The notes beneath the pieces were generated by a model. The model was given only the letters and a program-made list of their open reading frames with translations, made no database searches and was not told the DNA's origin. The position numbers and the translations under genes are program-made. This document shows, in pieces, positions 1 to 4,907 of a DNA stretch of 4,907 bases (position 1 is the stretch's first letter; each line of letters opens with the position of its first letter). The DNA is from a virus (taxonomy: Duplodnaviria > Heunggongvirae > Uroviricota > Caudoviricetes): positions 1 through 4,907 of IMG/VR virus record IMGVR_UViG_2563366942_000004; one strand, given 5' to 3'.

Positions 1-1064
1 GTTTTCAGGCCGTTGGGATCTTTCAGTGCATCCAGCCAGTCATAGACAATCTGTACCCAGGTGGTGAACGGACTGTACGCCGTCCAGATATGGAAAGTGA
101 TGGAGCGCGGCGGCGGAATTTCATCACCCCGGGCGCTGAAAAACATCAGGCCGTCACGGGTCCACATGCCCGTGTTTTCACAGATCCACCGCCCGTTACT
201 CTGGTCAAGCTCAGACTGATGGATCACACAGCCATGATGCTCACAAAGGTAGAAAACACTTTCTGGCTTATTCTTCTCCCACTTAAGACCGAAAGGCGAG
301 GCATCATCGCCAAATTTCAGATACTGCTCCTCCCCACAGTGCGGACAGGGCACATAAAAACGCATGAAGTGTGCCGACTCGTTAGCGGCTTTTTCGATCT
401 GGCAGGAGCCTTTGATTTTAGGCGTCGAGCCGCGAATGGATTTTGGCCATACAGAGCCCTCAATACGTTTATCCCCCAGCAGGGTTGGCGAACCCTCTTT
501 TTCAACATCCGGTTCGAACGAGGAAAGCTCGTCATAACAGACCACATCCACGGATTTTTCACGGTAGTTTTTTGCTGCCGCACCACCCAGACACCAGAAC
601 CCCACACCGGAGGAAAAACGCTTCAGGGTGAGCGTATTATCGCGGTGTTTTCTTCCGAACCATGGAGCCAGCTCCAGCAATGCAGGAACATCCCTTATCG
701 TTGGCTCAACATGAGATTTCATAAAATCTTCAGCAGCTGAGTCCGTGGGCTGAAAAAGAAGGCTGTTGCGTGATTTATGCTCAATAAAATAAGCCTCCAC
801 TCCCAGCAACATCTTTGTATAACCAACACGGGCAGATTTAATCAGGTTAACCGTGCGAATCAGATCGTTGCCCATACAGTTCATGATGCCAACCTGAAAC
901 GGCAGTGTTTCCCATCGCCCCGGGGTATAAGACGACTCTTTAGGAAGGTAATAATGTTTATTGGCCCACTGAACTGTCGTCAGTGGAACAGGAATAATGA
1001 GAGATAAAAGCCCTGTAGCTATCGCACCGGCTGCATTAGCTGCCTTCTGCGCGTCTGAAATCAT
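1..1064 (-). CDS. A: Terminase large subunit (lambda gpA-like), N-terminal ~354 codons; 3' end continues beyond window start
   Basis: My own minus-strand translation from ATG at 1064..1062 gives [85 protein letters not shown], later [29 protein letters not shown], and [19 protein letters not shown] at the window edge. These follow my recollection of lambda gpA ([34 protein letters not shown]). The ORF track lists no minus-strand ORF here, which fits a frame that has no stop before the window edge. The start overlaps the nu1 stop by ~29 nt, as in lambda. Not checked by search. Confidence 0.9.
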
Positions 1065-1526
1065 CGATCCACCCGCCCACGTTTTCACCGGCCTTAGCTG
1101 CAACATTGGAGGCTTTCGCGATTTCAGTTTTCACCACATCAAGGTGTGATGGTGAAATGTCCGGATATTTACGCTGTAATGTCAACGGCACACGCACAAG
1201 TATCCCCGAAATCTCCTGTGCCACACGTTGCAGAATGAAGGTAAACAGTTCAGTTTCCAGCACTACTCCGTCTTCACGGGCATTTTTCAGTTCCTGCGCA
1301 TCTGCCTGCGCTTTTGTGAGCCGGTAGCGTTCATAGTCAATGGTGCCGGGTTGTAAATCTGACTCCGCTGCCGCACGCAAATCGTCCAGTTCTTTGCGGA
1401 GCTTTTCGTTTTCGATATCAGTTTCCCTCTGCGCATACCACTGAATTGCCATGGCAGTATCAAATACAGATTCAATGCCCTTACTACCTTTGGAGGCGCA
1501 AGGGAGTCCCTGAGACTGCCAGCGTT
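1036..1526 (-). pseudogene. nu1: Terminase small subunit Nu1, 3' fragment (about codons 22-182), cut off from its 5' end by the IS
   Basis: The track ORF 1036..1608 (-) reads ...[82 protein letters not shown]..., closely following my recollection of lambda Nu1 from its WQEQGMP motif onward. The 29 codons upstream of the W codon (1521..1519) are read from IS left-end DNA and the apparent start is TTG, so the ORF as listed is chimeric. Confidence 0.85.
1521..1526. repeat. Target-site duplication AGCGTT, left copy
   Basis: AGCGTT at 1521-1526 is repeated exactly at 3937-3942. The bases outside each copy differ, so the duplication is at most 6 bp. Removing 1527..3942 restores an uninterrupted nu1 frame (...[13 protein letters not shown]...). 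Confidence 0.75.
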
Positions 1527-1560
1527 TATGAGACGACAATAACTCAGTCCGCCTGGCGCC
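1527..1560 (+). repeat. IS left terminal inverted repeat (imperfect)
   Basis: Left end TATGAGACGACAA... against the reverse complement of the right end TATTAGACGTCAA...: 11 of the first 13 positions match, and both arms end in GCGCC about 30 bp in. Extent is approximate. Confidence 0.5.
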
Positions 1561-1619
1561 GATTATTCTGGCCGGTTTTGTAACCTGAGTGTCATTTACA
1601 TGATCCAACAGGAAATGGC

Positions 1620-3119
1620 GTGACGCTCAATACTTCTCAGGTCAGTTACTATATGACTCAGCGTAAGAAAGGTATAACTCAGCATATCTCGGCCATGAAG
1701 GCTGGTATCTCAGTCCGTTCTGGTCGTCGGATCGAAAAAGGAGAGTGGGCAAAAAACAGTGTTAGGCACTGGCGCACACGCAAAGATCCTCTGGAAGCTG
1801 TGTGGGACAGCATGCTTGTTCCTCTGTTGAAAGAGAGGCCGGCTCTGACACCAACAACTCTGCTGGAGATGCTACAGGATAAATATCCCGGCCAGTACCC
1901 CAACAGCCTTCGAAGAACAATGCAACGGCGGGTCCGCGAATGGAAGCTACAGTATGGTGCAGAGCAGGAGGTCATGTTCCGCCAGCGACATCAGCCCGGT
2001 CTGCGAGGTCTGTCGGACTTTACTGAACTGAAAGGTGTAGTTGTCACCATCGCCGGTAAGTTGTTGGCGCATAAGTTGTATCACTTCCGTCTGGAATGGA
2101 GCCACTGGAGCTGGATGCGGGTTGTGCTGGGTGGTGAGAGCTTCTCTGCTCTGGCTGAAGGTCTGCAGGAAGCCCTCGGACAACTGGGCGGAGTGCCGGT
2201 AGAACATAAAACGGACAGCCTGAGGGCAGCATGGAAACAACAGGGCGAAGATGGACGCCGCGAGCTGACTGAGCGTTATGCTGCTCTCTGTCAGCACTAC
2301 GGAATGCAGGGCGTACACAATAATGCCGGTCGGGGCCACGAAAATGGCTCGGTTGAAAGTGCCCACGGACATCTGAAAAGGCGTATCTGTCAGGCGCTGA
2401 TACTGCGGGGCAGTAACGACTTCAGCACCATAGAAGAATATCAGGCCTTCATCACTCAGCAGGTTATGCGGCACAACCGTAACAATCAGGATCTGGTCAA
2501 GGAAGAACGTCTTCATCTGAAACCGCTGCCGCTTCGTCGCAGTGCTGACTATGATGAGCTGACTGTGAGGGTTAGCCGCAGCAGTACCATCAATGTGAAG
2601 CACGTCGTCTACAGCGTACCTTCCCGGCTTGTAGGTCAACTGTTACGGGTCCGGTTATGGGACGATCGTCTGAGCTGTTACGTTGGCAGCAGCGAGGTCA
2701 TGAGCTGCCCACGTGTCAGACCAGAAAAAGGGAAGACGCGGGCCCGTCGTATCGACTTCCGACATGTGATCGACAGTCTGGCAAAAAAGCCCGGTGCGTT
2801 CTGCCATGCAACGCTGAGAAATGACATCCTGCCAGACGATGAATGGCGGAGGCTGTGGCGTCGCTTATGTAATCATCTGGAACCCGACATGGCAGGCAGG
2901 CTGATGGTACATGCTCTGAAACTGGCTGCAGGATACGACGATATCTCAGTCGTGGCAAAAGGTATGGAGCAGATGCTGAATACCCCGGGAAACGTGGATC
3001 TGCACCGGCTGATGCGCTTCCTGGGTATAAAGGAAAAGGCGTTGCCGGTAGTCAATGTGAAACAGCATAACCTGAGCAGTTATGAGCAACTACTGCGTGG
3101 CAAGGGCGGTTCGCAGTGA
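1620..3119 (+). CDS. istA: IstA transposase (DDE, IS21 family), 499 aa
   Basis: Track ORF 1620..3119, GTG start preceded by AGGAAA (1610-1615). Likely helix-turn-helix near the N-terminus ([16 protein letters not shown]). Candidate catalytic residues in [15 protein letters not shown] and [16 protein letters not shown], which is my reading of a DDE pattern. Stop overlaps the istB start (GTGA at 3116-3119). Confidence 0.9.
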
Positions 3120-3871
3120 GCAATATCCATCCCCTTGAACGCAGCCTGCGTAAACTACGCCTGACACGAGTTGGAGCTGAATGGCACGCTCTGGAAAAAC
3201 GAGCACTGGCAGAAGGCTGGACACCATCGCGCTATCTTCTGACGCTATGCAATGAAGAACTCCTGTGGCGCGAGAGTGAAAAACTGCGTCGTTATAAAAA
3301 GGAGGCCCGGTTGCCAGTTGCCAAAACGCTAAGCGAATACGACTTCAGTCAGGTGCCGGAACTGAATGGAGCTCAGTTCCGGCAACTCTGTGAAACGACA
3401 GACTGGGTTGATGCAGGAGAAAACGTTCTGCTGTTCGGAGCCAGCGGGTTGGGGAAAAGCCATCTGGCGGCAGCGATCGTGGATGGCGTAGTAGGCCAGG
3501 GCTACCGGGCCCGGTTCTACAGCGCAGGAGAGTTGTTGCAGGAACTACGTAAAGCCAGAGCGCAGTTGAAACTGAATGAGCTGCTACTGAAACTGGATCG
3601 CTACCGGGTGATAGTGGTGGATGATCTTGGCTATGTCAAACGCGACAGCGCCGAAACGGGAGTACTGTTCGAGTTAATAGCGCATCGCTATGAACGTGGG
3701 AGCCTGGTGATAACCAGTAACCATCCGTTCAGCATGTGGGGCAGCATCTTCGTGGATGAGACTATGGCGGTGGCGGCGGCAGACCGGCTGATCCATCACG
3801 GATATATGTTCGAACTGAAAGGTGAAAGCTACAGGAAAAAGACAGCGAAGGCAGTAACAAGCGCGACTTGA
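3116..3871 (+). CDS. istB: IstB AAA+ ATP-binding helper protein, 251 aa
   Basis: Track ORF 3116..3871. Walker A GASGLGKSHLA and Walker B VIVVDDLGY. GTG start overlaps the istA stop by 4 nt, the usual coupled arrangement in IS21-family elements. Confidence 0.9.
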   Translation: MSNIHPLERSLRKLRLTRVGAEWHALEKRALAEGWTPSRYLLTLCNEELLWRESEKLRRYKKEARLPVAKTLSEYDFSQVPELNGAQFRQLCETTDWVDAGENVLLFGASGLGKSHLAAAIVDGVVGQGYRARFYSAGELLQELRKARAQLKLNELLLKLDRYRVIVVDDLGYVKRDSAETGVLFELIAHRYERGSLVITSNHPFSMWGSIFVDETMAVAAADRLIHHGYMFELKGESYRKKTAKAVTSAT

Positions 3872-3902
3872 TGTCGCACTGAAGGGGGCGGCCAGTATAG
3901 TT

Positions 3903-3936
3903 GGCGCGAGTCGGCAAAACTAGTTGACGTCTAATA
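3903..3936 (-). repeat. IS right terminal inverted repeat (imperfect)
   Basis: Reverse complement of 3903-3936 is TATTAGACGTCAACTAGTTTTGCCGACTCGCGCC, which pairs with the left end at 1527-1560. Confidence 0.5.
3924..3929 (+). promoter_or_regulatory. Outward-facing -35-like hexamer TTGACG in the IS right end
   Basis: TTGACG sits 7 bp inside the right terminus and points out of the element. IS21-family right ends are known to carry an outward -35. I found no good -10 at the proper spacing in the present flank. Confidence 0.3.
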
Positions 3937-3942
3937 AGCGTT
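3937..3942. repeat. Target-site duplication AGCGTT, right copy
   Basis: Exact repeat of 1521-1526, directly abutting the IS right terminus. Confidence 0.75.
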
Positions 3943-4000
3943 CAATCGTCCGCGGGTCCACGTTGAAAATTTCGGCAAGCCTCTTTTTATTAACCTTCAT
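3937..4000 (-). pseudogene. nu1: Terminase small subunit Nu1, 5' fragment (codons 1-21)
   Basis: Minus-strand ATG at 4000..3998 translates [21 protein letters not shown], compared with lambda Nu1 MEVNKKQLADIFGASIRTIQN from memory. The frame then runs into IS right-end sequence (LLDVN, stop at 3922..3920). Confidence 0.8.
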
Positions 4001-4025
4001 GAAAACAACCCATTATCAAATACAA

Positions 4026-4143
4026 GGCCCGACATGAAAACGCCAGAAAAAGGCATTTTCGGACACTTTCATGTCGGACCTTTACGGATGCAATATTAAA
4101 AAAAAACAAAAAGTTATATTCGAGAAGTACCGACACGATTTTC
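4026..4143 (-). promoter_or_regulatory. cosB-like terminase-binding region: three R-like repeats around an A-tract
   Basis: CCGACATGAAA at 4029-4039 and CCGACACGATTTT at 4130-4142 share one orientation; TTTCATGTCGG at 4067-4077 is inverted; an A-tract lies at ~4095-4113. This order (cosN, R3, bend site, inverted R2, R1, nu1 start) matches what I recall of lambda cosB. Element limits are approximate. Confidence 0.55.
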
Positions 4144-4177
4144 CCTGAAAAATTTTCATAAATAGTGAAAAACCGCG

Positions 4178-4189
4178 AGGTCGCCGCCC
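4178..4189 (-). other. cosN cohesive-end sequence (minus strand 5'-GGGCGGCGACCT-3')
   Basis: The reverse complement of 4140-4189 is GGGCGGCGACCTCGCGGTTTTTCACTATTTATGAAAATTTTTCAGGG. The first 17 nt are identical to the phage lambda left end as I remember it and the following ~30 nt are near-identical. Plus-strand 4190-4200 (CGTAACCTGTC) is the complement of the lambda right-end ...GACAGGTTACG. Confidence 0.8.
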
Positions 4190-4225
4190 CGTAACCTGTC
4201 GGATCGCCGGAAAGGACCCGCAAAA

Positions 4226-4240
4226 TGATAATAATTATCA
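4226..4240. promoter_or_regulatory. Fur-box-like 7-1-7 palindrome TGATAATAATTATCA
   Basis: Exact match to the 7-1-7 Fur-box consensus TGATAATnATTATCA. It lies ~36 bp beyond cosN and ~150 bp upstream of the ORF at 4389. A weaker ATAATcaATTAT palindrome sits at 4283-4294. Function is inferred only. Confidence 0.45.
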
Positions 4241-4388
4241 TCTACATGTCACAACGTGCATCTACACCATCAAACCACGTCAAATAATCAATTATGACGC
4301 AGGTATCGTATTAATTGATCTGCATCAACTTAACGTAAAAACAACTTCAGACAATACAAATCAGCGACACTGAATACAGGGCAACCTC

Positions 4389-4622
4389 ATGTCAACGAAG
4401 AACAGAACCCGCAGAACAACAACCCGCAACATCCGCTTTCCTAACCAAATGATTGAACAAATTAACATCGCTCTTGTTCAAAAAGGGTCCGGGAATTTCT
4501 CAGCCTGGGTCATTGAAGCCTGCCGCCGGAGACTGTGCTCAGAAAAAAGAGTTTCGCCTGAAGCAAACAAAGAAAAGAGTGACATTACTGAATTGCTCAG
4601 AAAACAGGTTAGACCAAATTGA
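4389..4622 (+). CDS. Small ribbon-helix-helix-like DNA-binding protein (77 aa), function unknown
   Basis: Track ORF 4389..4622, with a weak AGGG ribosome-binding site 8 nt upstream. The segment RNIRFPNQMIEQINIALVQKGSGNFSAWVIEACRRRL follows the strand-helix-helix pattern of Arc/MetJ/CopG-type proteins after a basic N-terminal tail. Its position beside the nu1/cos junction resembles the small ylcI/ynfO-class ORFs of E. coli cryptic prophages; that is unverified recall. Confidence 0.55.
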   Translation: MSTKNRTRRTTTRNIRFPNQMIEQINIALVQKGSGNFSAWVIEACRRRLCSEKRVSPEANKEKSDITELLRKQVRPN

Positions 4623-4679
4623 AGCAATCTAGATAATCGTGCAGACTACGCCCCCTCATATCACATGGAAGGTACTACA

Positions 4680-4907
4680 ATGGCTCAGGTTGCCATTTTT
4701 AAACAAATATTCGATAAAGTGCGAAATAATTTAAACTATCACTGGTTTTATTCTGAACTAAAACGTCACAATGTCTCACATTACATTTACTATTTAGCCA
4801 CAGAGAATATTCATCTTGTTCTTGAAAACGATAATACGGTTTTAATAAAAGGACAGGGTAAGGTTGTAAATGTAAGATTTTCAAAAAATAAATGCCTTAT
4901 AGAAGCC
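4680..4907 (+). CDS. Hypothetical protein, N-terminal 76 codons; continues past the window end
   Basis: ATG at 4680 with a GGAAGG ribosome-binding site 7 nt upstream; open through 4907 ([76 protein letters not shown]). Absent from the ORF track, presumably because no stop falls in the window. About 30% GC over 4681-4907 by my hand count. I could not assign a family. Confidence 0.5.

Follow-up and report, generated by a model that had tools for sequence, protein, structure and literature searches.

A copy of the K-12 nohA/nohB Fur site lies beside cosQ in a lambda-like prophage and recurs at the genome ends of lambda-like phages

The closest described counterparts of the site reported here are two Fur sites of Escherichia coli K-12, one beside nohA in Qin and the other beside nohB (nohD) in DLP12. 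Using a Fur information model built on 24 sites, Chen et al. (2007) placed a Fur cluster of 22.3 bits at coordinate 1,634,624, position -233 of nohA, and one of 25.3 bits at coordinate 579,824 for nohB; the latter is the second-highest score in their strong-cluster table, where it occupies the third row (PMC2189734). A nohA oligonucleotide was gel-shifted with 150 nM Fur, and an earlier Fur titration in vivo had picked out a nohA fragment (Vassinova and Kozyrev 2000, as cited in PMC2189734); neither nohA nor nohB is given microarray support in Table 4 of Chen et al. (PMC2189734). Myers et al. (2013) listed nohA among the Fur-repressed operons (PMC3688515). The same work reported an FNR ChIP-seq peak with its summit at 1,634,625, 1 bp off the Qin site, and FNR summits coincide likewise with nine other Fur-bound promoters (PMC3688515). 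Given that the box does not fit the FNR spacing TTGAT-N4-ATCAA, the sequence does not account for the FNR peak at the Qin site.

We analyzed a stretch of 4,907 nucleotides (hereafter the window, which means the whole of this stretch). The window corresponds over its full length, with 99.9% identity, to a lambda-like prophage of E. coli strain MS 21-1, and its minus strand has the orientation of the lambda map (Table 1). An earlier note on this DNA had described a perfect palindrome situated between cos and AT-rich ORFs. This setting is correct, as cosN and cosQ are found on one side of the palindrome and the DUF3950 and DUF1398 ORFs on the other. cosQ is the packaging-termination signal (PMC4669245), and the segment 4020-4165 is taken as a putative cosB from the cos architecture of lambda and phage 21 (PMC4669245). 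Near the nu1 start, this segment contains an inverted repeat (4024-4050/4056-4082) with 27-nt arms that are 81% complementary, probably the oppositely oriented terminase-binding R sites of a phage-21-type cosB. The protein encoded by the rejoined nu1 parts matched Pfam Phage_Nu1 with E = 1.9e-81. In the prophage, however, nu1 is interrupted by ISEc10 after codon 21, an insertion present in only two of 5,426 complete E. coli genomes; therefore, no small terminase subunit would be made from the prophage, which is presumably packaging-defective. An RNA family search of positions 3900-4907 returned no match near the gathering score, and a hit to the PrrF family (20.7 bits against a cut-off of 90) was discarded as chance. 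Outside the window, an ompC-like porin gene (L003, 14065-15147) is found in the same prophage, with the lysis cassette on one side and the Q-like antiterminator on the other; it is likely to be a lysogenic-conversion gene.

Table 1. Features of the 4,907-nucleotide window around the cos region of the prophage (positions are those of the window).
Feature	Position	Strand	Remarks
terL start	1064 down to 1	-	Cut by the window edge; follows the nu1 3' part
nu1 (terS) 3' part	1036..1526	-	terL start next
ISEc10 (IS21 family), within nu1	1527..3937	+	
istA of ISEc10	1620-3119		
istB of ISEc10	3116-3871		
5-bp target duplication GCGTT flanking ISEc10	1522-1526 and 3938-3942		
nu1 (terS) 5' stub, 21 codons	3938..4000	-	Partial terminase small subunit in RefSeq; ATG at 4000
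Putative cosB region, cosN to nu1 start	4020..4165	-	Approximate bounds; from position relative to nu1 and cosN
cosN, 12-base cohesive-end sequence	4178..4189	-	AGGTCGCCGCCC; minus strand reads GGGCGGCGACCT
cosQ	4213..4219	-	AGGACCC, minus strand GGGTCCT; aligns with lambda 48,473-48,479
Fur operator (binding near certain), 9-1-9 site AATGATAATAATTATCATC	4224..4242		Consensus matches, DLP12 identity, conservation
Perfect 7-1-7 palindrome TGATAATAATTATCA, core of the Fur operator	4226-4240		
Sigma-70-like match GTGACA (4252-4247), 16-nt spacer, TATCAT (4230-4225)	4225..4252	-	10/12
Sigma-70-like match TCTACA, 16-nt spacer, AATAAT	4261..4288	+	9/12; weak candidate
Second palindrome ATAATcaATTAT	4284..4295		5-nt arms, 2-nt spacer
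Inverted repeat, 13-nt arms	4287-4299/4307-4319		ATCAATTATGACG / CGTATTAATTGAT, 85% complementary, 7-nt loop
YlcI/YnfO-family ORF (DUF3950, 77 aa)	4389..4622	+	
DUF1398 ORF (YbcV/YdfO family)	4680..4907	+	Continues past the window edge

The palindrome had been claimed to match the Fur box exactly at 4226-4240, and both its sequence and its position were confirmed. It is unique in the window, even when two mismatches are allowed, and it agrees with the 7-1-7 motif TGATAATnATTATCA at 14 of 14 positions. The classical Fur box GATAATGATAATCATTATC is matched at 16 of 19 positions (4221-4239) and the 9-1-9 form AATGATAATnATTATCATT at 17 of 18 (4224-4242), and the next-best positions of the window outside this cluster reach a consensus match of only 12. 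Weaker overlapping Fur sites, shifted by 6 bp, widen the likely footprint to about 4218-4248. When the window was shuffled with its dinucleotides preserved, 0.01 matches to the palindrome were expected, and one of 200 shuffles gave one. The Fur core lies 6 bp from cosQ. We also considered Fis, FNR, ArgR, TyrR, Zur, DnaA and IHF as the binding protein, and these were rejected on inspection of their consensus sequences, which the half-site or G-C spacing does not fit.

A weaker palindrome had also been noted downstream. A short inverted repeat does exist there, although it occupies 4284-4295 rather than 4283-4294, and it is not Fur-like. It matches the two longer Fur consensus forms at only 8 of 19 and 8 of 18 positions, a level reached by hundreds of positions in the window. 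In other words, it scores as background, since its 2-nt spacer breaks the Fur register, and we rejected it as a weak Fur site. This palindrome overlaps the AATAAT -10-like hexamer and one arm of the larger inverted repeat at 4287-4319. The larger repeat, which precedes the DUF3950 start codon by about 70 nt, has been conserved in lambda, Qin and DLP12 and may form a 5'-leader hairpin or serve as the operator of some other factor.

The comparison with K-12 shows that the site is already known, as it is a further copy of the K-12 nohA (Qin) and nohB/nohD (DLP12) Fur site. On alignment, the nohA-ynfO intergenic region of Qin and the nohD-ylcI region of DLP12 are both collinear with the window from cosN to beyond the box. 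In each of the three, 233 bp separate the start codon of nu1, nohA or nohD from the box centre (in the window, from the ATG at 4000 to 4233), and the coordinates of the clusters published by Chen et al. coincide with the box centres; for nohA, counting 233 bp from the published start of the gene leads to the same centre. The DLP12 site, a Fur site by model prediction, is identical to the window in the 15-mer core, the whole 19-bp site and the immediate flanks; it differs in the linker base at window position 4220 (A for G) and in one base about 25 bp downstream. Its coordinate of 579,824 in U00096.2 corresponds to 580,601 in NC_000913.3. The Qin site, centred at 1,634,624 in U00096.2 and at 1,636,600 in NC_000913.3, likewise lies 6 bp outside cosQ between ynfO/ydfO and nohA, and shares 14 of the 15 core bases. 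It differs from the window in the central non-contact base, which is G instead of A, and in a few flank bases; on the window strand, the core of both Qin and lambda reads TGATAATGATTATCA, the central base being the only change. In the immediate flanks, Qin and lambda have one further base change. The offsets of 777 and 1,976 bp between the two sets of coordinates equal the insertions that separate the two K-12 sequence versions.

Scoring with a Fur weight matrix had been proposed as a check, and the published model already supplies a value, given that the identical DLP12 19-mer scores 25.3 bits (PMC2189734). The reading of the palindrome as a Fur operator is thus upheld by K-12, where a published Fur site has this sequence and this position. 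Because of this orthology with the experimentally tested Qin nohA site, we consider Fur binding near certain here, with the palindrome as the core of a true high-affinity operator. For this window, the result has little significance beyond adding one more copy of a catalogued Fur-binding site.

The earlier note had also considered an iron-responsive operator unexpected next to a phage packaging site. This expectation did not hold, as such boxes are a regular feature of lambda-like cos regions. Lambda itself has the box TGATAATCATTATCA at 48,452-48,466, six bases from its cosQ at 48,473-48,479; the box has the same place relative to cosQ and the cohesive end as in the window, and its sequence is that of the Fur-binding Qin site. 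Phi80 has a perfect TGATAATAATTATCA and N15 has CGATAATAGTTATCG, although in these two phages the neighbouring gene (gp59-like) is oriented toward cos, unlike in the window. In the searchable literature, we found no discussion of the lambda, phi80 or N15 box as a Fur site. The phi80 record NC_021190.1 labels a 55-bp block that includes the box (46,084-46,138; L330, 385-439) 'cosQ; aka R4 region', which indicates that the conservation had been noticed but was credited to packaging.

We then surveyed cos sites in IMG/VR, which were collected by cosN (AGGTCGCCGCCC), a gap of 20-26 nt and cosQ (AGGACCC), so that the box itself was not used for selection. The 222 cos sites obtained were clustered into 42 lineages on the sequence 40-220 nt beyond cosQ, and a box was called when at least 11 of the 14 positions of the 7-1-7 motif were matched and the match started 3-7 nt after cosQ. 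A box was present in 24 of the 42 lineages, whereas the other 18 scored 9 or less; the background rate of a box-grade match in the same loci was 0.2%. In the box-bearing lineages, the cosN-cosQ spacer itself has diverged and the far flank is unrelated. The consensus of the lineage representatives, AAAtGATAATgATTATCAtTT, that is AAA(T/C)GATAAT(G/A)ATTATCA(T/A)TT(A/G)C, is that of the 9-1-9 Fur model, symmetric and with the outer AA/TT, which the 7-1-7 form lacks. Such symmetry is expected of a dimeric binder and not of a promoter. In the lambda/DLP12 lineage, for which we compared 60 unique sequences, no variation was seen at 12 of the 14 specified positions of the box, and the other two, at its left edge, change only rarely. 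The central base, by comparison, differs in many of the sequences, and the flanks are variable as well. This pattern is that expected for selection on Fur recognition, and the box appears to be selected. The cosN-to-box segment was found in 3,829 of 5,426 complete E. coli genomes (about 71%), with up to seven copies per genome.

A separate scan of contigs for cosN plus cosQ added almost nothing, as most hits were either chance matches in genomes of high GC content or contamination by lambda spike-in DNA. Seven contig ends (L137, L143, L169, L229, L230, L236 and L244) were identical to lambda in the cosN-cosQ spacer and in the 50 nt beyond cosQ, and they came from assemblies labelled Chromatiales, Oceanobacillus profundus, Pseudomonadales and others. 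Contamination of these assemblies with lambda control DNA is the most likely explanation.

One of the best Fur boxes of E. coli is part of the conserved right genome end of lambda-like phages, lambda included, and this raises the question of why these phages keep a top-ranking Fur box beside cosQ, which seems never to have been asked. We found no mention of a role for iron or Fur at cos in the cos and Fur literature searched. In most phage lineages it stays 3-7 bp from cosQ irrespective of the neighbouring genes. A tentative answer, which we hold to be less likely than not, is that selection maintains the box as an accessory element at the ends of lambda-like genomes and that it links iron status, via Fur, to an event at cos. 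If this is true, then the candidate events would be the entry of transcription into the terminase operon, the termination of packaging, what happens to the first-injected DNA end, and titration of Fur during the lytic phase.

For the window, our best full explanation, to which we assign a probability of roughly 55%, is a Fur operator that represses weak transcription starting inside the box and directed toward nu1. On the basis of the experiments with the orthologous site, Fe2+-Fur dimers would occupy roughly 4218-4248 when iron is sufficient and would leave the box when iron is scarce, and the most likely consequence would be repression of weak transcription begun within the box. The box covers the spacer and the -10 hexamer of the minus-strand match GTGACA/TATCAT, which makes this the candidate Fur-repressed promoter, and this match is the only one in the window with the classical geometry of repression. 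Transcripts from it may run over cosQ, cosN and cosB into the terminase operon.

The output toward nu1, which the earlier note had named as one of two possibilities, agrees with the literature assignment of nohA as Fur-repressed (PMC3688515), but a conserved promoter was not found: a match of at least 9 of 12 over the box occurs in only 2 of the 24 box-bearing lineages on each strand. Both lambda and Qin have the weaker minus-strand hexamers GTGATA and TATCAC; a further difference from Qin is that the downstream nu1 of the window is split by ISEc10. To reach nu1, a transcript from this promoter would also have to begin with a leader of some 220 nt that spans cosN and cosB. As the promoter is weaker in lambda and Qin and absent in other lineages, as such a leader would be needed, and as we found no expression data, the output toward nu1 is of low certainty; with the same low certainty, we rank it first and control of the 4389 and 4680 ORFs second. 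In the strain of the window, control of terminase is moot because ISEc10 has destroyed nu1. The K-12 annotation should also be read with caution, since nohA was assigned as the regulon target by proximity and its promoter is predicted only.

We also considered the possibility that the box places the DUF3950 ORF at 4389, the DUF1398 ORF at 4680 and, in lambda, also bor under iron control, which would make it a switch for lysogenic conversion. Within the lambda/DLP12/Qin lineage, these ORFs are oriented away from the box, no other promoter is obvious for them, and the TCTACA/AATAAT match (9/12) lies between the box and the DUF3950 ORF. A plus-strand ORF also adjoins the box in a few other lineages (L038, ynfO-like; L007; L058). 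However, the TCTACA/AATAAT match starts 21 bp beyond the Fur core, and the box centre is about 60 bp upstream of its predicted start, so that box and plus-strand promoter do not overlap. The -35 hexamer of this promoter is variable in the lambda/DLP12 lineage and absent in lambda and Qin, and the second palindrome, which covers its -10 hexamer, is not Fur-like. In addition, the adjacent gene reads toward cos in at least 14 of the box-bearing lineages inspected, as well as in phi80 and N15; examples are the Rz spanin in L009 and a GnsB-like gene in L025. In such cases there is nothing to control on that side. One RNA-seq study under copper stress also showed the Fur regulon up and ybcV, the DUF1398 gene of DLP12, strongly down (PMC13618251).

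As a general role, the control of these two ORFs that the earlier note had put forward is thus not supported, given that the neighbours often face cos and that no promoter is conserved on either strand. It is unlikely as an explanation of the box, although lineage-specific use for the control of accessory genes is possible. Fur-controlled lambdoid accessory genes do exist; the promoter of stx1 is iron-regulated. Another case is sitABCD, which is carried with a fur box by 70% of infant-gut lambda phages (PMC6969025). There, as proposed here, host Fur makes a prophage function iron-responsive, but the sitABCD box lies in the promoter of an identifiable cargo operon (PMC6969025), whereas the cos box often has no outward-facing gene.

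A further alternative is that the box serves the genome end itself, either with Fur acting next to cosQ, as a host accessory factor or as an obstacle, in packaging termination or in protection of the first-injected end, or with the box as a multicopy decoy. In the decoy version, Fur would be titrated during lytic replication and host iron uptake would be raised. The position of the box is consistent with such roles, as it follows cosQ at 3-7 nt whatever the flanking genes are and a promoter is conserved on neither strand, and the label in the phi80 record points in the same direction. The decoy would also have a precedent in the titration of Fur in vivo by the multicopy fragment, which is how nohA was cloned (PMC2189734); by our own estimate, however, it is quantitatively doubtful that a few hundred genome copies would titrate Fur. 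For a host-protein site in cos, the precedent is the IHF site I1 in cosB, where the site of an abundant host DNA-binding protein likewise lies in or beside cos (PMC4669245). I1 is placed between terminase-binding sites and contributes to packaging initiation (PMC4669245), whereas the Fur box is outside cosQ and is missing from satellites and from many normally packaging phages.

This last difference argues against a need for the box in packaging. The box does not behave as a subsite of lambda cos, being absent from 18 of the 42 lineages with cosN and cosQ, and it is absent from all five PICI-like satellite lineages, compared with 10 of 25 TerL lineages (Fisher p = 0.04). In these satellite-like lineages, the Nu1 homologue is Rpp-like and TerL is missing within 3.5 kb; they share cosN and cosQ and use the terminase of the helper. 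Given that satellites with the same cosN and cosQ lack the box, packaging probably does not need it. The linker between box and cosQ also varies by 4 bp, and therefore the two have no fixed helical phasing. The cos literature that we searched names only cosQ, cosN, I2 and cosB, with no requirement to the left of cosQ. We therefore regard a service to the genome end as quite unlikely.

A roadblock or insulator role, in which either a Fur box or a terminator would keep transcription out of terminase, was rejected, as cos-facing terminators are found in box-bearing lineages too; an either/or distribution of box and terminator was not found, and most box-less lineages have no terminator either. 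Finally, the palindrome might be an AT-rich sequence that arose by chance and is bound by no protein. The earlier note had allowed for a chance match in such AT-rich DNA, and Fur boxes resemble -10 hexamers, but this reading is extremely improbable given the 0.01 matches expected in shuffles, the box in 24 of 42 diverged lineages against a background of 0.2%, a core that is essentially invariant in 60 related sequences while its central base varies, and the binding of Fur by the orthologue in vitro and in vivo (PMC2189734).

The survey also revealed a distinct arrangement in the PICI-like elements, which contain two inverted cosN plus cosQ units separated by 550-900 bp (for example, L006 317-359 on the minus strand and 1087-1128 on the plus strand). 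The same two-unit layout was seen in L013, L015, L030, L042, L044, L079, L099, L108, L111, L121, L248, L249, L261, L280, L281 and L285. The two units flank a single gene for a 144-aa Nu1/Rpp-like protein, capsid-like genes adjoin, and there is no Fur box. The unit with the canonical layout is followed by a terminator hairpin, and the other unit points the opposite way. Such opposed cos units would allow packaging in both directions.
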